Assembly (NCBI GenBank): GCA_048882385.1
Contig: JBHLRQ010000020.1
Coordinates: forward strand, 1-16,284
Length of the DNA stretch: 16,284 bases
Reading direction: 5' to 3'
DNA from: Candidatus Thorarchaeota archaeon
GTDB lineage: Archaea; Asgardarchaeota; Thorarchaeia; Thorarchaeales; Thorarchaeaceae
Positions 3,421 through 10,236 of the stretch are shown in pieces; positions within the stretch are counted from its first letter, which is position 1; each line of letters begins with the position of its first letter. The notes below the pieces were generated by a model that did not search any database, was not told the origin of the DNA, and saw only the letters and a list, made by a program, of their open reading frames with translations. The translations under genes and the position numbers were made by a program.

Positions 3421-4629
3421 TTAGTGCTTGATTACAGTCTTACCCTTTAGAATCACTCTCTCAATCGATAGAGGATCCTTTAGAAGAGAAATATTGTCAA
3501 GTGGATTTTTTCCGGAAGCTAGTATCAGTAGATCTGCAGATTTCCCAGGCTCGATAGTCCCAATCTCGGATTCGATTTTGAGTGATTTTGCTGCATTGCT
3601 TGTTCCTGCAATAATAGCATCACTCTCAGACATCCCACCAACTTTTACCAAAAGCTCCATTTCTTGCATTGATGAAGGTCCGAAAGGTGTGTAGGGCATT
3701 CCTGAGTCAGAACCCACAACCATTTCAACACCTGTCTTGACTGCGTTCTTTACTCCTTGTTCGATAAGTGGATAGATTTCCTTCTCTTTTCGCACCATAT
3801 AATCAGGCAAATCCCCGTCATCATGATGAAGCTGTGACTCATAATAGGTCACAATTGTTGGCATGTAAATAGTCCCATGCTTCTTCATTAGTTCAAGATT
3901 CTCTTTGTTTAATGGGTGCCCGTGAACTAGAACATCCACACCCGCGAGGATTGTATTCTTGATTCCGATGTCGCCATAAGCATGGGCATGTACCATCTTT
4001 CCGACCTTGTGAGTTTCTTCAACTGCCGCCTGTAATTCATCCAGATTGAATTGTGGGCTCATGCTCTCAGTCTTGGCAGCTGATATTGCTCCGGTGGATG
4101 CAAGTTTGATGAAGTGAATACCTCTAGCAATCTCCTGTCTAACTGCTCGCCTAACATCATCCGGGCCATTTGCTTCACTGTAGCCAGACATCGGATCCCT
4201 TCCACCGGAAATTGATATCATTCTGCCACACAAAAGTAGTCTTGGACCATTGATGATACCCTTCTCGATTGCTTCTCTCACAGCAAAGGAAAGGTTACCC
4301 CTAGAGGCTGCGTCCCCAGCAGTTGTGATCCCATTATTGAGAAGACGCTCGCAAACCACACCTCCTCTGATTGAGAGAAATTCATCTGAAAGTTTTCTCA
4401 CCTCATCAGGATCTGCTGCAATTCCATCATATCCTACATGAACATGTGGATCGATGATGCCTGGCATAACGACCCTATCAGAATAATCAAGGATTTCTGT
4501 TTCTGAATCCACTTCAATATTGGAATCCACATCAGAAATGGTCTGGTCCTTGAATAGAATAGATATGTCATTCAAGACCTTTCCATTACCTACAATCAAT
4601 GTGCCTGTTTTCAGAAGGATATTAGCCAT
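3421..4629 (-). CDS. Metal-dependent amidohydrolase (Xaa-Pro dipeptidase-like subgroup)
   Basis: MPGIIDPHVH (HxH), IKLASTG (carbamylated Lys position), HAHAYG, VHGH, GSDSG, GTIEPGKSADL. Confidence 0.9.
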   Translation of the reverse strand: MANILLKTGTLIVGNGKVLNDISILFKDQTISDVDSNIEVDSETEILDYSDRVVMPGIIDPHVHVGYDGIAADPDEVRKLSDEFLSIRGGVVCERLLNNGITTAGDAASRGNLSFAVREAIEKGIINGPRLLLCGRMISISGGRDPMSGYSEANGPDDVRRAVRQEIARGIHFIKLASTGAISAAKTESMSPQFNLDELQAAVEETHKVGKMVHAHAYGDIGIKNTILAGVDVLVHGHPLNKENLELMKKHGTIYMPTIVTYYESQLHHDDGDLPDYMVRKEKEIYPLIEQGVKNAVKTGVEMVVGSDSGMPYTPFGPSSMQEMELLVKVGGMSESDAIIAGTSNAAKSLKIESEIGTIEPGKSADLLILASGKNPLDNISLLKDPLSIERVILKGKTVIKH

Positions 4630-4694: not shown

Positions 4695-6581
4695 TTACAA
4701 TTTGAGTCTGAACAAGTATTCTTCGTCTTGTATCGAGAGTTTACTCTCGACCACCTTTCCAGTCTTGTGGATGAACCGAATCATTGGCTGATTCTGAGGA
4801 TGTACAAAGGCTATGAATGCATCAACACCCTTGCTCTTTGCAATTCTCATGAGGTGGTTGAATAGAAACGTTCCTATTCCCAGACCCTGATACTCATCTT
4901 GGACGAGGAGTGCGAATTCAGCCTCGTTTGTGCTTCTGTTCAACAGATACCTTCCAGCACCGATTATTCGCTCAGTTTCACCTTCCACGTCTGACTTTAT
5001 GACAGCGACAACACTGATGTCACTGGACTGGTCCACGTTGTAGAAATCTTGGAGTGTCTGTCTACGTAGTGACTTAAGGGGCGTCAGGAATCTGAAGTAA
5101 ATACTCTCTTCACTGAGATCGTAGAAAAGCTCCTTAATTCTGTCAGAGTCGTCAGGTCTAATCAATCTGAATTGGACATCGATTGGTCCTTCCGAAGTCT
5201 TGAAGGTTTCTTGCACTTCATACTCTGAGGCAAAATAGGTGCCCTGCACAAGAAATGGGACCTGGTCTTCAAACACATAATGCATTTTCTTCGCAGCTTC
5301 TAGCAACTCATTCCGAAACTTTGGATGAGCCACAGCAATCAAGGAGAGTACTCTTTCTCTAATGGTCTTCCCATGAAGTGTTGCAAGACCGTACTCTGTG
5401 ATAACTACATCCACATCTCCGCGTGTTGTCACTACGCCGGCACCTTCACTTAAGCGCGGAACTATTCTTGAAACCGTGCCATTCATTGCTGTTGAGAGCA
5501 TACAGATGATTGCCTTTCCACCCCGTGACCGCTTGGCACCACGGATAAAATCGACTTGGCCTCCGATACCGCTGTAAAATCTATGCCCAATCGAATCTGC
5601 ACACACCTGTCCTGTAAGATCAACCTCTAAAGCTGAGTTGATAGCTATCATCTTGTTGTTTTGTCCGATAACATAAGGGTCATTGACATAGGCAGTATCA
5701 TAAAAATGGAACATTGGGTTGTCATTGATGTAATCATAAAGCTTCTCAGAACCCATTGCGAAGCTGGCTATCACCTTTCCACGATGAAGTGTCTTCTTTT
5801 TGTTAGTCACAACTCCTTTCTCAATCAATGGGATGAGACTGTCACTGAACATCTCTGTATGGATTCCCAGGTCCCGTACACCTGAGTCCAGTAGGTTATT
5901 ACAGACTGACTGTGGCAAAGCTCCAATTCCAAGCTCAAGCGTCGAATCATTCTCTACCAATCTTGCCACATAACTTCCAATCTGATCTATTGTTTCATTA
6001 ATTTCATCAGCTTGAAACTCTCTCAAAGGCTCATTATGTGGAACAAGGTAGTCTATCTCACGAACGTCGATAAAGGAGTCACCATGGGTAATTGGCATCC
6101 TGTCATTGACTTGTGCAATGACTAAATCCGCACTTTCAGCAGCTGATTTCGTGATATCGACTGAAATACCCAGTGAACTGTACCCATTGCGGTCTGGAGG
6201 ACTAATCTGTATGAGCGCAACATCAAGGGGCATTCTTCTTAGTCTGAATAGCTCGGGGATGTCTGACAGCATTATCGGTGTATAATCTGCACGACCCTCA
6301 GATACCGCCTCACGGATGTTTGAACTAACAAAGAATGTGTTATGCCGAAACTGATTTTGAAATTTCTGATCTGCAGACGGAGTGTCACCCAACGTGAGAA
6401 GGTGCACTATTTCATTGTCAGCCATATGGTCTGCATGTTTTGCAAGTTCCTGCACTAGATGGTACGGAACTCCACAACCAGTTCCCAGAAAGATTCTAGC
6501 TCCCCTTTTAATCATCTTAATGGCTTTTGAAGAGTTTACAACTTTGCTTTTGTACTTCTGAACCCAATCCGTCTGGCTCAT
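4695..6581 (-). CDS. Acetyl-CoA hydrolase/family-I CoA-transferase (4-hydroxybutyrate CoA-transferase-like) fused to a C-terminal Pat-like GNAT acetyltransferase
   Basis: LELGIGALP, LGIHTEM (catalytic Glu position, E243), NSALEVDLTGQ, SGIGGQVDF, TEYG, AHPKFR; then FRLIRPDD...LSEESIYFRF...AEFALLVQDEYQGLGIGT (GNAT motif A). SD GGGGTGA upstream. Confidence 0.92.
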   Translation of the reverse strand: MSQTDWVQKYKSKVVNSSKAIKMIKRGARIFLGTGCGVPYHLVQELAKHADHMADNEIVHLLTLGDTPSADQKFQNQFRHNTFFVSSNIREAVSEGRADYTPIMLSDIPELFRLRRMPLDVALIQISPPDRNGYSSLGISVDITKSAAESADLVIAQVNDRMPITHGDSFIDVREIDYLVPHNEPLREFQADEINETIDQIGSYVARLVENDSTLELGIGALPQSVCNNLLDSGVRDLGIHTEMFSDSLIPLIEKGVVTNKKKTLHRGKVIASFAMGSEKLYDYINDNPMFHFYDTAYVNDPYVIGQNNKMIAINSALEVDLTGQVCADSIGHRFYSGIGGQVDFIRGAKRSRGGKAIICMLSTAMNGTVSRIVPRLSEGAGVVTTRGDVDVVITEYGLATLHGKTIRERVLSLIAVAHPKFRNELLEAAKKMHYVFEDQVPFLVQGTYFASEYEVQETFKTSEGPIDVQFRLIRPDDSDRIKELFYDLSEESIYFRFLTPLKSLRRQTLQDFYNVDQSSDISVVAVIKSDVEGETERIIGAGRYLLNRSTNEAEFALLVQDEYQGLGIGTFLFNHLMRIAKSKGVDAFIAFVHPQNQPMIRFIHKTGKVVESKLSIQDEEYLFRLKL

Positions 6582-6599
6582 TGCAGATCACCCCACAGC

Positions 6600-6627
6600 A
6601 ATGCAGCTTTCGAAAGTCAGCTGTATT
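6600..6627. promoter_or_regulatory. Inverted repeat in the divergent promoter region (candidate operator)
   Basis: AATGCAGCT/AGCTGTATT arms (one G-T mismatch) overlapping the palindrome CTTTCGAAAG (6607-6616) and a minus-strand TAAATA. Confidence 0.35.
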
Positions 6628-6734
6628 TAGGCATTTGTAATTGTCCCCCTATTTGTGTTTATGACGGAAGGCTTTTAGTGGGGTTCTTTCCGCCAGCGGC
6701 TCAATACCTGACAATATGACAGGTGAATTTCATA

Positions 6735-8009
6735 ATGTTGTCTGATGAGAAAATTGGTAATAGGAACCTTGTCATTCTCGGTGCGCTCATTGTGCAGTTG
6801 TGTCTGGGTTCAATATACGCTTGGTCCTTCTTTCAGACTGCCCTGAGAGGAGGTGCATACAGTTGGCCCTCACTTCTGACGCAACTCCCATTTGCAGCAG
6901 GACTGGCATCGTTCGCTCTGTTCATGATATTTGCTGGAAGATGGCAAGATCGCGTTGGTCCAAAAAAGGTCGCCACTGTGGGTGGTATCCTTCTAGGAGT
7001 AGGTTATATTCTCGCATTCTTCGTTGATGCTGTTGCAGGATCTGATGCTGTTCTAGGTACAGTCTATCTGATTATCACCTACGGCATAATTGGTGGTGCT
7101 GGTATCGGATTTGCCTATGTATGCCCAATTGCTGCTCTAGTGAAGTGGTTCCCTGACAAGAAAGGCGCAATCACTGGTATTGCGGTAGCTGGTTTTGGTG
7201 CTGGAGCTCTCGTGTTTGGCTATGTGGAACAGTTCTTACTTACCTTGTTTGATGTTCCAGTCGTGGCATCAATTGGTATGCCAATGCTGGTCCTAGGTAT
7301 TGTCTATCTTGTTCTCGTGGTTCTCGGTTCACAGCTTCTTACCAACCCTCCAGAGGGTTGGCTCCCAGAAGGCTACACACCACCACCAACAACAGCTGAT
7401 GGTGCTGGAACCGGAATGATGCCGGGTGAGATGATTAGGACTTCAGCATTCTGGTTATTGTGGCTCATGTTTGTGTTTGCAGCTACTGCAGGTCTTATGA
7501 CCTTGGGTAACGTGACATCTGCAGCAGGGGCCATCGATCTTCTGATGACAGCTGCAGATGCAGTTGTGATAGTTGGCGTAATGAGTTTGTTAAATGCCGC
7601 TGGACGTATTGTCTGGGGTGCAACCTCTGACAGGCTAGGTAGAGAGAATACAATGATTTTGATGTTCCTTGTTCTCGCTCTTGGAATGTTCACATTCGCT
7701 TGGATGTCAACAATCTCAATCAGCTGGATCGCAGTGATGGGTATTGCATCACTAATCGGTTTCTGCTTTGGTGGAAACTTTGCTCTGTTCCCATCTGCCA
7801 CAGCGGACTTCTTTGGAAGTAAGAATGTTGGCAAGAACTACGGTGTGATGTTCACCGCATATGGAATAGCAGGAATAACAGGTGCTTTTGTGGCTGGGCC
7901 AATTGTCGATGCTACTGGGTCTTACTTCATGGCATTTGTTGTGACTGGTATTCTAGCAATCATCGCAGTTCTTTTCACGTTTGTACTGAAATCCAAACGT
8001 AGTTCTTAA
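6735..8009 (+). CDS. MFS transporter, oxalate:formate antiporter (OFA)/monocarboxylate family
   Basis: About 12 TM segments; LCLGSIYAWS, GRWQDRVGPK, KWFPDKKGAITG, NAAGRIVWGATSDRLGRE, FGSKNVGKNYG. ATG 6735 follows SD AGGTGA. Confidence 0.9.
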   Translation: MLSDEKIGNRNLVILGALIVQLCLGSIYAWSFFQTALRGGAYSWPSLLTQLPFAAGLASFALFMIFAGRWQDRVGPKKVATVGGILLGVGYILAFFVDAVAGSDAVLGTVYLIITYGIIGGAGIGFAYVCPIAALVKWFPDKKGAITGIAVAGFGAGALVFGYVEQFLLTLFDVPVVASIGMPMLVLGIVYLVLVVLGSQLLTNPPEGWLPEGYTPPPTTADGAGTGMMPGEMIRTSAFWLLWLMFVFAATAGLMTLGNVTSAAGAIDLLMTAADAVVIVGVMSLLNAAGRIVWGATSDRLGRENTMILMFLVLALGMFTFAWMSTISISWIAVMGIASLIGFCFGGNFALFPSATADFFGSKNVGKNYGVMFTAYGIAGITGAFVAGPIVDATGSYFMAFVVTGILAIIAVLFTFVLKSKRSS

Positions 8010-8019
8010 ATGAATGAAA

Positions 8020-8064
8020 AAAGAGGTCCAGGATTGATTCCTTGACCTCTTTCCTCTCTATTTT
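8020..8064 (+). terminator. Hairpin plus pyrimidine tract after the MFS gene
   Basis: AAAGAGGTC-C-AGGA-TTGAT-TCCT-T-GACCTCTTT followed by CCTCTCTATTTT. Confidence 0.6.
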
Positions 8065-8198
8065 CCATGAAATCTTTGTATTTGCAAACTTCTTCGACAA
8101 TGAGTTGACTTTCAATAAAAATACGTGATATTAGATAAGCTTCATATAGTCTAGATTTTGCTCGTCGGCCATCGAATTGACGGTATTAGGTGACGTAC

Positions 8199-10190
8199 TT
8201 GTCAGAAGAAAAGAAGATTACAGTTTATAGCCAGGAAGAAAGGCGTTTCGATCCCCCAAAGAGTTTCGTCGACAAGGCATATGTAAAGAGCCAAGATGAG
8301 CGAATGAAGATTTGGAAAGAGTCAGTCGAAAATCCTGATGAATTCTGGCTCAAAGCAGCCAAGGAACTTTGTTACTGGAAGAAAGAGCCAACCAAGGGTT
8401 TTGAATGGGAAGATATCGAGAATATTCGATTCACCTGGTTCAAAGACGGTGTAACCAACATGGCGTACAACTGTCTTGACAAAAATATTGAGGCAGGCAA
8501 AGGTGACCAGATTGCGCTAATCTGGCAGGGTGAGCCCCTTGAAGAGTCAAAGACCTACACATACAGTGAACTTCTCAGTGAGGTCAACAAAGCAGCCAAT
8601 GTCCTGAAGAACCTGGGTGTCAAAAAGGGCGACCGAATTACAATGTACCTCCCCATGATTCCGGAGCTTGCAATCATCATGCTTGCTTGTGTTAGGATTG
8701 GTGCAGTTCACAGCATTGTCTTTGGTGGATTCAGCTCAGATTCTGTCAAAGACAGAATTCTCGACTGTGAGGGTAAAATACTGGTTACAGCAGATGGTTA
8801 CTACCGCGCAGGTAAAACAATTCCGCAGAAGGTAGGTGCAGACAAAGCTGTCGAAGATCTCGATTTAGTCGAGAAGGTTCTCGTTGTTAAGAGAGTTGGA
8901 ATTGACGTTCCCTGGACCGAGGGAAGAGATGTCTGGTACCACGAGGAATACGAGAAAGTCGACGACAAGTGCGACCCTGAGTGGATTGATGCAGAAGATC
9001 CACTTTTCATTCTCTACACATCTGGTTCAACTGGGAAGCCAAAGGGAGTCCTCCACACAACTGGTGGATACATGACCTACACAACTCATACTTTCAAGCA
9101 TATCTTTGATTGGCATGAGGGTGATGTCTACTGGTGTACAGCTGATATCGGTTGGATTACAGGTCACTCCTACATCGTATATGGACCTCTCTCAGCTGGG
9201 GCAACCTCATTGATGTTTGAGTCCGTGCCTACATATCCTGACAATGATAGATTTTGGCTTGAAGTGGAGAGGTGGAAAGTCAACCAGTTCTACACAGCTC
9301 CAACTGCTATCCGGGCTTTGATGCGATTTGGTAATGATCCCGTATTGAAGCATGATCTATCATCCTTAAACCTGCTTGGAACAGTTGGTGAGCCAATCAA
9401 TCCTGAGGCTTGGATATGGTACCACGAGATGATTGGAAAGAAGAACTGTCCAATTGTTGATACTTACTGGCAGACTGAAACCGGTGGTGTCATAGTCACT
9501 CCACTACCTGGAGCTACTCCAACTATCCCCGGGAGTGCAACCTTTCCGTACTTTGGTGTTGACCCCGTCATCGTTGCTGAAGATGGCGTAACAGTTGGTG
9601 CAAACGAGGGTGGATATTTGTGCATGAAGAAGCCATGGCCTGGTCTCATGAGGACTGTCTATGGTGATCACAAGCGGTTCATCGACACATACTGGGTCCA
9701 GTTCAAGAATCCTGAAAACGGAGATCCGATGTACTACACTGGTGACGGGTCTCGATTCAACGATGATGGTTACATCTTCGTGATGGGCCGACTTGACGAT
9801 GTTCTCAAGGTGTCCGGTCACAGACTAGGTACTGCTGAAATTGAGTCATCACTTGTCAAGCATCCTGCAGTGGCTGAGTGTGCAGTTGTAGGATTTCCTC
9901 ACGAGATTAAGGGTGAGAGTATCTACGTATTTGTCACTCTGAAGATGGGTATAGAGAAGACTGATGCACTCAAGCTTGAGCTCAGAAACCACGTCCGCGC
10001 TGACGTCGGTCCAATCGCCACTCCTGAGAAGATTCAGTGGGCTGATGCACTTCCGAAGACTCGCTCAGGTAAGATCATGAGGCGAATTCTCAAGAAGATT
10101 GCAGCAGGTCAGATTGACGACCTCGGTGACACTACAACCTTGGCTGACCCAACAGTCGTTGAAACTCTAGTCAGGGAACGAATAGAATAA
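8199..10190 (+). CDS. acs: Acetyl-CoA synthetase (AMP-forming), acetate--CoA ligase
   Basis: YTSGSTGKPKG, WCTADIGWITGHSY, VGEPINPEAW, DTYWQTETGG, GRLDDV...SGHRLGTAEIES, LPKTRSGKIMRR. TTG 8199 follows SD AGGTGA (track start is 8190). Confidence 0.97.
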   Translation: MSEEKKITVYSQEERRFDPPKSFVDKAYVKSQDERMKIWKESVENPDEFWLKAAKELCYWKKEPTKGFEWEDIENIRFTWFKDGVTNMAYNCLDKNIEAGKGDQIALIWQGEPLEESKTYTYSELLSEVNKAANVLKNLGVKKGDRITMYLPMIPELAIIMLACVRIGAVHSIVFGGFSSDSVKDRILDCEGKILVTADGYYRAGKTIPQKVGADKAVEDLDLVEKVLVVKRVGIDVPWTEGRDVWYHEEYEKVDDKCDPEWIDAEDPLFILYTSGSTGKPKGVLHTTGGYMTYTTHTFKHIFDWHEGDVYWCTADIGWITGHSYIVYGPLSAGATSLMFESVPTYPDNDRFWLEVERWKVNQFYTAPTAIRALMRFGNDPVLKHDLSSLNLLGTVGEPINPEAWIWYHEMIGKKNCPIVDTYWQTETGGVIVTPLPGATPTIPGSATFPYFGVDPVIVAEDGVTVGANEGGYLCMKKPWPGLMRTVYGDHKRFIDTYWVQFKNPENGDPMYYTGDGSRFNDDGYIFVMGRLDDVLKVSGHRLGTAEIESSLVKHPAVAECAVVGFPHEIKGESIYVFVTLKMGIEKTDALKLELRNHVRADVGPIATPEKIQWADALPKTRSGKIMRRILKKIAAGQIDDLGDTTTLADPTVVETLVRERIE

Positions 10191-10201
10191 TTAAAACTCA
10201 A

Positions 10202-10236
10202 GAGAGAGGTCAATAAACCTCTCTCCTTCTGTTTTT
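10202..10236 (+). terminator. Hairpin plus T tract after acs
   Basis: GAGAGAGGT-CAATAA-ACCTCTCTC followed by CTTCTGTTTTT. Confidence 0.65.

Follow-up and report, generated by a model that had tools for sequence, protein, structure and literature searches.

A CoA-transferase fused to a Pat-type GNAT, encoded divergently from acs in a Thorarchaeota archaeon: a candidate acetylation switch for acetyl-CoA synthetase

In the window (the whole stretch of 16,284 nucleotides that was analysed, from a Candidatus Thorarchaeota archaeon), a single gene encodes a family I CoA-transferase joined to a Pat-type GNAT. It stands back to back with genes for a carrier and for Acs, an acetyl-CoA synthetase of the AMP-forming kind. 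We consider it fairly probable that this fusion is a Pat-type lysine acetyltransferase at the acetate/acetyl-CoA node, one that switches Acs off by acetylating its Lys628, and, as part of the same proposal, that the CoA-transferase domain stands in for the inactive ADP-forming acyl-CoA synthetase domain of E. coli PatZ. Fusions of CoA-transferase and GNAT are widespread yet unstudied; literature searches found no paper on them.

The locus and its parts

Every sequence feature described in a prior sequence-only reading of this DNA was found where that reading had placed it (Table 1).

Table 1. Features of the locus, with window coordinates
Feature	Position	Strand	Basis
Fusion gene, 628 aa: family I CoA-transferase (3-430) + Pat-type GNAT (471-608)	4695-6581	-	ORF, translation, Pfam, NCBIfam
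GNAT domain, Pat type	4758..5171	-	Pfam, NF058543, solved relatives
Glu555 codon, counterpart of catalytic Glu (PatZ E809, slPatA E123)	4917..4919	-	Alignment, coordinates
LSEESIYFRF, residues 489-498, corresponding to the PatZ gating motif; contains Arg497 (PatZ R754)	5088..5117	-	Alignment to 9IT0
CoA-transferase part, AcetylCoA_hydro N + C domains	5292..6575	-	Pfam, solved relatives
Glu243 codon, predicted CoA-thioester nucleophile, in GIHTEM	5853..5855	-	Alignment
Divergent intergenic region, fusion to carrier	6582..6722	.	Sequence
MFS monocarboxylate carrier, SfMCT-like (oxalate/formate antiporter family)	6723..8009	+	NCBIfam
acs, AMP-forming acetyl-CoA synthetase	8190..10190	+	TIGR02188, 949 bits vs cut-off 725
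Lys628 codon in PKTRSGK (motif from residue 622)	10071..10073	+	Coordinates

Pfam recognizes both halves of the transferase (AcetylCoA_hydro at residues 3-184, E 1.2e-35; AcetylCoA_hyd_C at 277-430, E 1.3e-67). The top solved relative of this part is TtCoAT of Thermus (9VAG, E 7.1e-134), followed by the 4-hydroxybutyrate CoA-transferases 3EH7, 2OAS, 3D3U and 3GK7; the butyryl-CoA:acetate CoA-transferase model TIGR03948 is not passed (294 bits, cut-off 675). The GIHTEM motif had been said to hold the catalytic glutamate, and Glu243 is indeed present there. It aligns with Glu249 of RipA (chain 3qli, numbering offset 15), which PMC3180442, in its available part, gives as the catalytic residue of family I CoA-transferases. 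All of the CoA-transferase motifs examined are retained, and the domain looks, from its residues, catalytically competent.

The C-terminal part, placed earlier at about 5180-4695, matches Acetyltransf_1 and Acetyltransf_3 (E 1e-10 and 3e-06) and the mycobacterial Pat model NF058543 (E 5.8e-18). All nine of its top solved relatives are lysine acetyltransferases of the Pat type: slPatA (4NXY/4U5Y), PatZ (9ISQ/9IT0), Sulfolobus Pat (3F8K) and mycobacterial Pat (4OLL/4ORF/4ONU/4AVA). The Pat-like signature RxIRPxD...LSxES that had been reported occurs as RLIRPDD from residue 472 and LSEES from 489. The second of these opens the counterpart of the PatZ gating motif, which spans V746-T763 in PatZ, where the replacement R754A leads to loss of activity (PMC12184503, in its available part). 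These comparisons support a Pat-type GNAT whose catalytic residues are in place. Of the 150 cluster representatives closest to the GNAT part, 29 are at least 400 residues long; 24 of these are CoA-transferase-GNAT proteins and four have true Pat architectures (ACD-like domains followed by GNAT). Two fusions, and nothing else in this genome, match it at E <= 0.001. An AlphaFold2 model of the whole fusion, built with 101 sequences, has a pTM of 0.89 and a mean pLDDT of 91.9.

On the other strand, a carrier of the OFA type had been proposed. A carrier is there, and it passes the NCBIfam SfMCT model NF049980 (386 bits, cut-off 320), but its match to the oxalate/formate antiporter subfamily model, at 228, stays under the cut-off of 375. 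The divergent region, taken earlier to be a promoter region of about 150 bp, measures 141 bp. Across 15 aligned orthologous regions two blocks are conserved, one at TATATAGGC..TTTCCAAGTGG and the other at GACGGAAGGCTTTTAGT; these are putative back-to-back archaeal TATA/BRE promoters. Past acs lies a terminator-like hairpin (10202-10225).

Acs itself keeps the PKTRSGK motif, with the lysine codon exactly where it had been read. This Lys628, the counterpart of Acs K609, the residue that Pat acetylates, does not vary among the Acs aligned (30 of 30).

Neighbours of the fusion across genomes

Conserved linkage of the fusion to acyl-CoA synthetases was the test that the sequence-only reading had set itself, and the surveys came out in its favour. 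Within this archaeon's own family, 21 of 23 loci, from 13 genera, have Acs next to the orthologous fusion and divergent from it, with the carrier between fusion and acs in 19 of the 21; a contig end cuts off one further locus. In other Asgard families, Acs adjoins the more distant fusions in 11 of 28 loci, divergently as well as convergently, and neither Acs nor ACD is adjacent in 13. The survey of other phyla has Acs no more than 8 kb from the fusion at 8 of 61 loci, one of the eight belonging to a Thorarchaeota MAG.

Unfused CoA-transferases, taken as control, have Acs within 8 kb in 0 of 15 cases; this control is small, and the difference is not significant (Fisher 0.16). With about 1% expected from position, the 8 of 61 give a binomial tail of 1.5e-7, a figure that overstates the case, since related genomes are not independent. 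Arrangements that contain Acs vary by lineage (MFS< ACS< divergent from ACD> FUS>; ACS> MFS> ACD> FUS>; ACD> FUS> HDAC> ... ACS<), and the carrier adjoins acs in four bacterial-MAG loci (L031, L044, L049, L054).

Here, the earlier interpretation needs amendment. The Acs linkage, the deacetylases, the Pat-type GNAT and the fold described below support it in part, but beyond this archaeal family Acs is not the gene most often found next to the fusion. That gene is the one for the ADP-forming acetyl-CoA synthetase (ACD), present at 27 of 61 loci; these neighbouring ACDs retain the catalytic His in 28 of 29, and ACD is beside none of the 15 unfused CoA-transferases. Among 201 Asgard genomes, 28 with an Acs over the cut-off lack the fusion, and 18 that carry it lack a full Acs. 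The present genome has five ACD alpha-type genes, and no acetate kinase was found in it. It also has a paralogue of the fusion (on contig C119) that lies behind CODH/ACS genes and adjoins no Acs; the family must therefore serve more than Acs.

Such variety of neighbours (ACD, Acs, CODH/ACS or none) would suit a general, Pat-like writer that acetylates ACD, parts of CODH/ACS and other acyl-CoA synthetases, Acs being one target of many and no special switch being involved. The target Lys is retained in this genome's second Acs-like gene (on C40) as well, and PatZ is reported with around 1,000 substrates in the available part of PMC12184503. We nevertheless regard this view as very unlikely. Divergent pairing with acs across the 13 genera, and its recurrence in other phyla, speak for a privileged relation, and a broad writer overlaps with the switch proposed here rather than excluding it.

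Residues lost, residues kept and the deacetylases

In 101 fusions, the column of Glu243 holds E 82 times, Q nine times, H four times, C and P twice each, and A and I once each. The transferase nucleophile is thus replaced in 19 of the 101, which requires at least five changes on the tree. Acs-adjacent fusions of the Asgard family f9 have His at this position in 9 of 9, and triple fusions that add an HDAC have Asp in 99 of 108. All 101 retain R472, D478, R497 and N597 of the GNAT, and at position 555 they have either E (94) or D (seven). On these alignments, the nucleophile of the CoA-transferase is dispensable, and the GNAT is not.

Deacetylases accompany the family. HDAC-family (HDAC/AcuC-type) genes occur near 14 of 61 fused loci, directly adjacent in six, and near none of the 15 unfused (Fisher 0.033). 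The CoA-transferase-GNAT-HDAC triple fusion recurs, at least 120 protein clusters being listed, and several sources term its HDAC part AcuC-like. A sirtuin or HDAC-family deacylase, which the earlier reading had advised looking for, is present in this genome: there are two sirtuin genes and six of the HDAC family. Within the window no deacetylase gene adjoins the fusion; the candidate eraser, an HDAC at G000:C20:22416-23294, is on the same contig beyond the window, about 16 kb from the locus, and at another locus (L132) its orthologue (587 bits) is directly upstream of the fusion.

One might of course see in carrier, Acs and CoA-transferase only a route for activating short-chain acids, the GNAT acylating, for example, a small molecule. 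Acs would then make acetyl-CoA, and the transferase would hand the CoA to another acid. The window's copy does retain Glu243 and its other motifs, TtCoAT uses acetyl-CoA as donor to several short acids, the paralogue comes after genes that form acetyl-CoA, and the ACD> FUS> pairs agree with a route in which ACD and a CoA-transferase together would draw ATP from short acyl-CoAs of any kind. However, unfused CoA-transferases of the same family lack such neighbours (Acs, ACD and HDAC at 0 of 15 each), and in the nine Acs-adjacent f9 fusions, all without the nucleophile, a ping-pong mechanism is impossible. The solved relatives of the GNAT acetylate proteins rather than small molecules, and it is protein deacetylases whose genes and domains accompany the family. 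The purely metabolic reading is unlikely, though with every motif examined intact, the window's copy could conceivably have a mainly metabolic role.

Known systems and the proposed switch

Folded together, the GNAT (residues 440-628) and the C-terminal part of Acs (530-666) gave a median score of 0.69 over three runs, against 0.00 for the best of three controls; among solved complexes 116 of 157 attain that mark, and among mismatched pairs 2 of 215. The runs agreed in at least 94% of contacts, with partner pLDDT of at least 83. In the predicted fold, Lys628 lies in the GNAT active site, contacting residues 497-499, 557 and 592, and Glu555 contacts Acs 624-626. Because the slPatA-Acs complex 4U5Y has already been solved, this result speaks for likeness and not for binding, and it may be a memory of that structure.

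The likeness extends to Pat types I and II (E. coli PatZ 9IT0/9ISQ, Salmonella Pat, Streptomyces lividans PatA 4NXY/4U5Y). Their C-terminal GNAT is of the same clade (E 5.6e-17 to 3.3e-14), shares the catalytic Glu, the gating-motif Arg and the Q..G.G acetyl-CoA loop, is joined to a large, enzyme-like domain that binds CoA esters, and is linked to Acs and a deacetylase. The partner domain of PatZ lacks its catalytic His (PMC12184503, available part), as many CoA-transferase-GNAT fusions lack their Glu; unlike it, the partner in the window's copy looks catalytically intact. That partner is also a family I CoA-transferase, of an unrelated Pfam family, and not an ADP-forming acyl-CoA synthetase. 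No CoA-transferase partner figures among Pat types I to V in the available parts of PMC12184503 and a 2021 review. Type III Pat (mycobacterial cAMP-Pat 4AVA/4OLL, ACT-GNAT, NADP-GNAT) likewise places a Pat-type GNAT after a ligand-binding sensor, but those sensors are small and non-enzymatic, whereas here the partner is a 430-residue enzyme domain.

Bacillus subtilis, with its AcuA-AcuC-AcsA system, encodes both the writer, a GNAT, and the eraser, of the HDAC type, divergently from acs (PMC13121692, PMC11255334 and PMC11910552, in their available parts). The window resembles it in the divergence of acs from the writer, and the family resembles it in the HDAC genes, AcuC-like by some accounts, that adjoin or join the fusions. 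AcuA differs in being a GNAT-only protein of another clade, absent among the solved relatives of the fusion's GNAT at E <= 0.001, and the window differs in having its candidate eraser at a distance.

The closest characterised CoA-transferase, TtCoAT of Thermus thermophilus (TT_C1083), points to another possible target, being the main substrate of a Thermus GNAT. By the available text of its preprint (bioRxiv 10.1101/2025.10.31.685773), this short-chain acyl-CoA:acetate CoA-transferase is the most strongly acetylated protein of the cell, acetylated mainly at Lys5 by TT_C1711 and deacetylated by a metal-dependent enzyme (TT_C0104). That text describes no fusion ("fused" is absent, "fusion" occurs once), and TtCoAT is, unlike the protein studied here, the substrate of a separate GNAT.

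By analogy, the fused GNAT might acetylate the CoA-transferase domain, in its own subunit or an adjoining one, on lysines; the fusion would then couple a writer to its substrate, with Acs merely a metabolic neighbour, and the matching N-terminal stretch does offer Lys9, Lys11 and Lys13. Such self-regulation seems quite unlikely. Lys5 itself corresponds to Ser12 and is, in the available text of the same preprint, a poorly conserved site; the Thermus mark acts through an alanine-dehydrogenase-like partner, which was seen beside unfused CoA-transferases only (four loci). Self-regulation would also leave the linkage to Acs and ACD unexplained, and gives no account of the nucleophile's loss while the GNAT stays.

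As an Acs switch, the preferred reading, the locus would work as follows. The carrier would import a monocarboxylate for activation by Acs. Given an ample supply of acetyl-CoA or some other short acyl-CoA, the GNAT would acetylate the catalytic Lys628 of the neighbouring Acs, and acetate activation would stop; an HDAC/AcuC-type deacetylase, for which the gene about 16 kb away is the best candidate, would remove the mark. The CoA-transferase domain would bind acyl-CoA and probably provide oligomerisation and allosteric control. In the window's copy it may sense the acyl-CoA, generate it or merely serve as a scaffold and, because it looks catalytically competent, it may also swap CoA between acetyl-CoA and other short acids. 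Shutting off Acs would spare ATP for the cell, and would avert a futile cycle with the cell's own ADP-forming acetyl-CoA synthetases.

The fusion protein and its locus

The window (C20:1-16284) belongs to a genome bin of 3.70 Mb that is 95.3% complete, and the sources of the nearest proteins are labelled Thorarchaeota, Promethearchaeota and Sifarchaeia. The features that the sequence-only reading had claimed for this locus, from domains and catalytic residues to Lys628 of acetyl-CoA synthetase (AMP-forming; Acs) and the coordinates, were borne out in every detail.

Features of the fusion-acs locus in the window
Feature	Position	Strand	Basis
Fusion protein, 628 aa	4695-6581	-	ORF and translation
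Gap between fusion and carrier genes, 141 bp	6582-6722		Sequence
MFS carrier	6723-8009	+	ORF
acs	8190-10190	+	ORF
Amidohydrolase	3421-4629	-	ORF and Pfam

The fusion joins two parts. In Pfam, these are AcetylCoA_hydro (PF02550, residues 3-184) with AcetylCoA_hyd_C (PF13336, 277-430), followed by a GNAT (Acetyltransf_1/_3, 471-608). AlphaFold2, given an alignment of 101 rows, folds the whole protein with a mean pLDDT of 91.9 and a pTM of 0.89.

The two-domain fold (PF02550 plus PF13336) and a catalytic glutamate, Glu243, point to a family I CoA-transferase. The best solved relative of this part is 9VAG (E 7.1e-134), followed by 4-hydroxybutyrate CoA-transferases. In a fragment-search alignment, the GIG loop of the fusion corresponds to G-V227-G of Yersinia RipA, and Glu243 corresponds to RipA Glu249, because the G-V-G and H-T-E-V motifs of the aligned RipA chain sit 15 residues above the numbering of the paper, which presents Glu249 as the catalytic glutamate of the family I enzymes (PMC3180442). 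As to substrate, the part scores under every NCBIfam equivalog cut-off; the best is TIGR03948, butyryl-CoA:acetate CoA-transferase, with 294 bits against 675. Pfam finds in the fusion none of CoA_binding, Succ_CoA_lig and ATP-grasp_5, which make up the ADP-forming acyl-CoA synthetase-like regulatory domain of type I/II Pat (PatZ, SePat, SlPatA).

The GNAT, by its fold, its catalytic residues and its nearest solved relatives, is predicted to be of the Pat type. Every one of its nine best solved relatives is a lysine acetyltransferase of the Pat type, with phosphinothricin acetyltransferases trailing at E 3.4e-05 and weaker, and its match to the model of mycobacterial Pat has E 5.8e-18. The acetyl-CoA loop (Q/R-x-x-G-x-G/A) is present as QGLGIG at 565-570; among 101 aligned fusions, column 568 is Gly in 97, and column 570 is Gly in 79 or Ala in 15. 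Aligned by position with PatZ (9IT0), Arg497 corresponds to R754 and Glu555 to E809, while LSEESIYFRF falls within the gating motif V746-T763; Glu555 also corresponds to the catalytic E123 of slPatA. Alanine mutants of PatZ R754 and E809 are described as losing much activity (PMC12184503).

Acs itself scores 949 bits against TIGR02188 (cut-off 725). Its Lys628 (codon 10071-10073) lies within PKTRSGK, which fits P-x-x-x-x-G-K, and does not vary among 30 aligned Acs sequences. The carrier between the two genes scores as an MFS monocarboxylate transporter of the SfMCT type, with 386 bits against the 320 required by NF049980.

Several smaller features surround these genes. In an alignment of 15 orthologous fusion/carrier intergenic regions, two blocks are kept across genera, approximately TATATAGGC..TTTCCAAGTGG and GACGGAAGGCTTTTAGT; they resemble archaeal TATA/BRE promoters set back to back, perhaps together with a regulator site. 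The amidohydrolase, on the fusion's strand and 65 bp downstream of it, is Xaa-Pro-dipeptidase-like (240 bits, under a cut-off of 500). It stands directly 3' of the fusion in three of 23 orthologous loci (L101, L104 and L106), and several genes off in L117. Right after the acs stop, at 10200-10227, a hairpin of 9-12 bp with a T-run behind it is readable on both strands and is terminator-like by a bacterial rule only. A hairpin picked by eye at about 8020-8055, between the carrier gene and acs, is absent from the terminator scan results. A second copy of the acs 3' end was sought in the window by tblastn with the C-terminal 146 residues of Acs, which matched only acs itself.

Distribution of the architecture

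In a search with the whole protein, the 120 best matches have 77-100% identity, and 119 of these carry both the CoA-transferase and the GNAT families, the exception being a 558-aa piece. When the GNAT part alone was the query, 9,291 of 1.84 billion cluster representatives matched at E <= 0.001. Among the best 150 of these, 29 proteins have at least 400 aa: 24 are CoA-transferase-GNAT fusions (one with an added HDAC domain), four are classical Pat proteins (ACD-like domains plus GNAT), and one joins a GNAT to a peptidase domain. Twelve of the shorter matches were scanned, giving seven truncated fusions, one CBS-GNAT and four with the GNAT only.

Among 201 Asgard genomes sampled, 93 have the fusion. 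These fall in the organism's own family (41/43) and in families f9 (35/40), f22 (9/10), f24 (3/3), f16 (3/5) and f18 (1/1), with none in the remaining Asgard families sampled. A scan across phyla, with one genome per species and a query alignment of seven closer sequences, returned 79 loci, of which 61 are fused, 15 unfused and three cut by contig ends. Their MAG labels include Planctomycetota, Verrucomicrobiota, Desulfobacterota, Elusimicrobia, Thermoplasmata and Bathyarchaeia.

A larger form also exists. A search with the GNAT-HDAC junction found 127 clusters at E <= 1e-10, and in all 120 listed a CoA-transferase C domain occurs together with an HDAC domain. The contigs that encode the listed proteins reach 2.16 Mb, and for several of the proteins a source gives the name AcuC-like. 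The CoA-transferase-GNAT-HDAC triple fusion is recurrent.

Gene neighbourhoods

In the window's own genome, two fusions are the sole matches to the GNAT (E <= 0.001) and the sole AcetylCoA_hyd_C genes. The second, on contig C119 (3289-5175, minus strand), is 69% identical overall and 71% in the GNAT, and comes immediately after a CODH/ACS cluster's cdhC-, cdhD-, cdhD- and cooC-like genes. A second Acs-like gene, on contig C40, is not near a fusion. The genome has five alpha-type genes for ADP-forming acyl-CoA synthetase (ACD), and acetate kinase found no match in it. The sequence-only reading had proposed looking for a deacylase, and the genome has two genes for sirtuins and six of the HDAC family.

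The sequence-only reading had tied the fusion to acs, and a survey of neighbourhoods supports this link. Sixty Asgard loci were mapped. Twenty-three, from 13 genera, hold orthologues of the copy in the window (76-92% identity); of these, 21 have a divergent acs, and in 19 the carrier stands between the two genes. Of the other two loci, one ends at the fusion. The second, L132, in another genus of the same family, has instead an HDAC gene directly upstream, in the fusion's own orientation; this gene is orthologous (587 bits) to an HDAC-family gene (C20:22416-23294, minus strand) that lies beyond the window on the same contig, about 16 kb from the window's fusion. In locus L114, the fusion-adjacent acs reads as two ORFs (366 and 418 aa), maybe by a frameshift or an assembly error.

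Nine further loci hold the second paralogue (69-73% identity), directly after cdhC-cdhD-cdhD-cooC-like genes in seven. A small unrelated GNAT of 189 aa follows the paralogue in this genome and in two of the nine related loci. The remaining 28 loci are fusions of other families (41-47% identity), where Acs is adjacent in 11, ACD with a DRTGG/P-loop protein in four, and neither in 13. By genome, 75 of the 201 have both the fusion and an Acs over the cut-off, 18 the fusion only (several of these with an Acs cut at contig ends), 28 Acs only, and 80 neither. Acs therefore does not everywhere require the fusion.

Beyond the Asgard set, neighbours were surveyed over 8 kb on each side of the fused and unfused loci, using queries from the window's own genome.

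Neighbours of fused and unfused loci in the cross-phylum survey
Neighbour	Fused	Unfused
True Acs (704-1,299 bits)	8/61 (one a Thorarchaeota MAG)	0/15
Other AMP-binding enzyme	1/61	0/15
HDAC family	14/61 (6 directly adjacent)	0/15
SfMCT-like carrier	5/61 (always beside Acs)	0/15
ACD of about 700 aa	27/61, plus 2 cut loci	0/15

With the unfused loci as control, one-sided Fisher tests yield 0.0006 for ACD, 0.033 for HDAC and 0.16 for Acs, so that the control alone leaves the Acs excess unestablished. Against a positional expectation of about 1%, the Acs count has a tail probability of 1.5e-7, a value computed over genomes that, being related, do not count as independent. To check the control group, its neighbours were read too: the unfused CoA-transferases have an alanine-dehydrogenase-like neighbour at four loci, which matches the partner described for Thermus TtCoAT (bioRxiv 10.1101/2025.10.31.685773).

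The commonest neighbour, by unbiased clustering of all ORFs, is ACD, mostly directly upstream on the same strand. One might suppose that such an ACD is the dead regulatory subunit of a Pat split between two genes; this is rejected, since 28 of the 29 ACD neighbours keep the catalytic His. Whole modules occur (arrowheads give gene direction, FUS being the fusion): HDAC< MFS< ACS< ACD> FUS> at L049, MFS< ACS< ACD> FUS> at L054, ACS> MFS> ACD> FUS> at L044, and ACD> FUS> HDAC> ... ACS< at L023 and L033. No sirtuin (SIR2) gene lies near the fusion in any of the 79 surveyed loci, though the window's genome has two; an HDAC-type eraser is thus preferred. In a Desulfobacterales-labelled clade, five fusions with Gln at the nucleophile position (L060, L065, L081, L083 and L093) have the gene of an Smr-domain protein just upstream, not acetate enzymes.

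A candidate switch at the acetate node

In bacteria, the textbook example of protein acetylation is acetyl-CoA synthetase, which is controlled through reversible acetylation of lysine. The best-supported reading of the locus, for which the evidence is comparative and modelled and which we hold to be moderately probable, is that the GNAT of the fusion would acetylate Lys628 of Acs, turning acetate activation off. The family as a whole fits best the description of a writer of the Pat type for the acetate/acetyl-CoA node, its partner domain being a CoA-transferase.

The evidence here that the fusion may acetylate the catalytic lysine is a predicted pair fold. GNAT residues 440-628 with Acs residues 530-666 score 0.69 (median of three runs), where the best of three controls scores 0.00. 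Of 157 solved complexes, 116 attain the mark applied, as do two of 215 mismatched pairs; these counts are rough here since custom alignments were used. At least 94% of contacts agree between runs, with partner pLDDT of at least 83; Lys628 contacts 497-499, 557 and 592, and Glu555 contacts 624-626. A similar complex, the slPatA GNAT with Salmonella Acs, is already solved (4U5Y; PMC12184503), so the score may reflect memory of it; such a pass denotes likeness and is not proof of binding.

The two parts of the fusion differ in constraint. Across the 101 aligned fusions, GNAT residues R472, D478, R497 and N597 are invariant and the catalytic column 555 is Glu in 94 and Asp in seven. The transferase nucleophile column 243, in turn, is Glu in 82, Gln in nine, His in four, Cys in two, Pro in two, Ala in one and Ile in one, with at least five state changes on a FastTree tree from which the nucleophile columns had been left out. 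Among 108 triple fusions with at least 950 aa, this column is Asp in 99, Glu in seven, Gly in one and Ala in one. All nine Acs-adjacent f9 fusions (L140, L142, L144, L147, L149 and L151-L154) read GMHSH(Y/F)(I/V)T with GNAT residues intact, whereas the Acs-adjacent fusions of f1 and f16 keep Glu. The same nine have, besides His for the nucleophile, an altered second glycine motif.

Thus, in several lineages, the transferase domain cannot use the glutamyl-CoA mechanism, though it is kept beside an intact writer. These domains parallel the dead ACD-like domain of PatZ, whose catalytic His is replaced by Leu245 (PMC12184503). In the window's copy Glu243 is kept, so a catalytic role is possible.

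It is unlikely, in our estimate, that the domain plays an active part in the switch and is not a passive sensor. Such a part could take two forms. As a ratio sensor, its share of covalent glutamyl-CoA would follow the ratio of acyl-CoA to free acid and gate the GNAT, and Acs would be switched by this ratio and not by acetyl-CoA alone. As a donor maker, it would form the acyl-CoA of the imported acid beside the GNAT, and Acs would be marked with that acid's acyl group. Under this reading, the lineages with Gln, His or Asp would hold a sensor frozen in a binding-only form.

The literature searched gave no description of a CoA-transferase-GNAT fusion, nor any text pairing "GNAT domain" with "CoA transferase domain". 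The 2025 PatZ paper, in the sections available, lists GNAT types I, II, III (cAMP, ACT, NADP) and IV, adds type V in its Discussion, and does not use the wording "CoA transferase" (PMC12184503); a 2021 review by Lammers, in its accessible part, lists types I-V. A Thermus preprint concerns the acetylation of an unfused CoA-transferase; its available text has "fused" nowhere and "fusion" once (bioRxiv 10.1101/2025.10.31.685773).

The fusion would add a widespread type of writer, found in 93 of the 201 Asgard genomes sampled and in MAGs whose labels span many bacterial and archaeal phyla. Work on how acetylation writers sense metabolism is continuing. Here, the enzyme that would act as sensor belongs to the metabolic node itself, and in some relatives writer and eraser are on one chain. 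ACD turns acetyl-CoA into acetate with a gain of ATP; Acs turns acetate into acetyl-CoA, costing the conversion of ATP to AMP. A cell with both can waste ATP, and from this established enzymology we infer a motive in avoiding the futile cycle. As a concrete candidate open to testing, the fusion may be what lets Asgard archaea, and many anaerobes, keep ATP-yielding acetate formation from opposing ATP-costly acetate activation.
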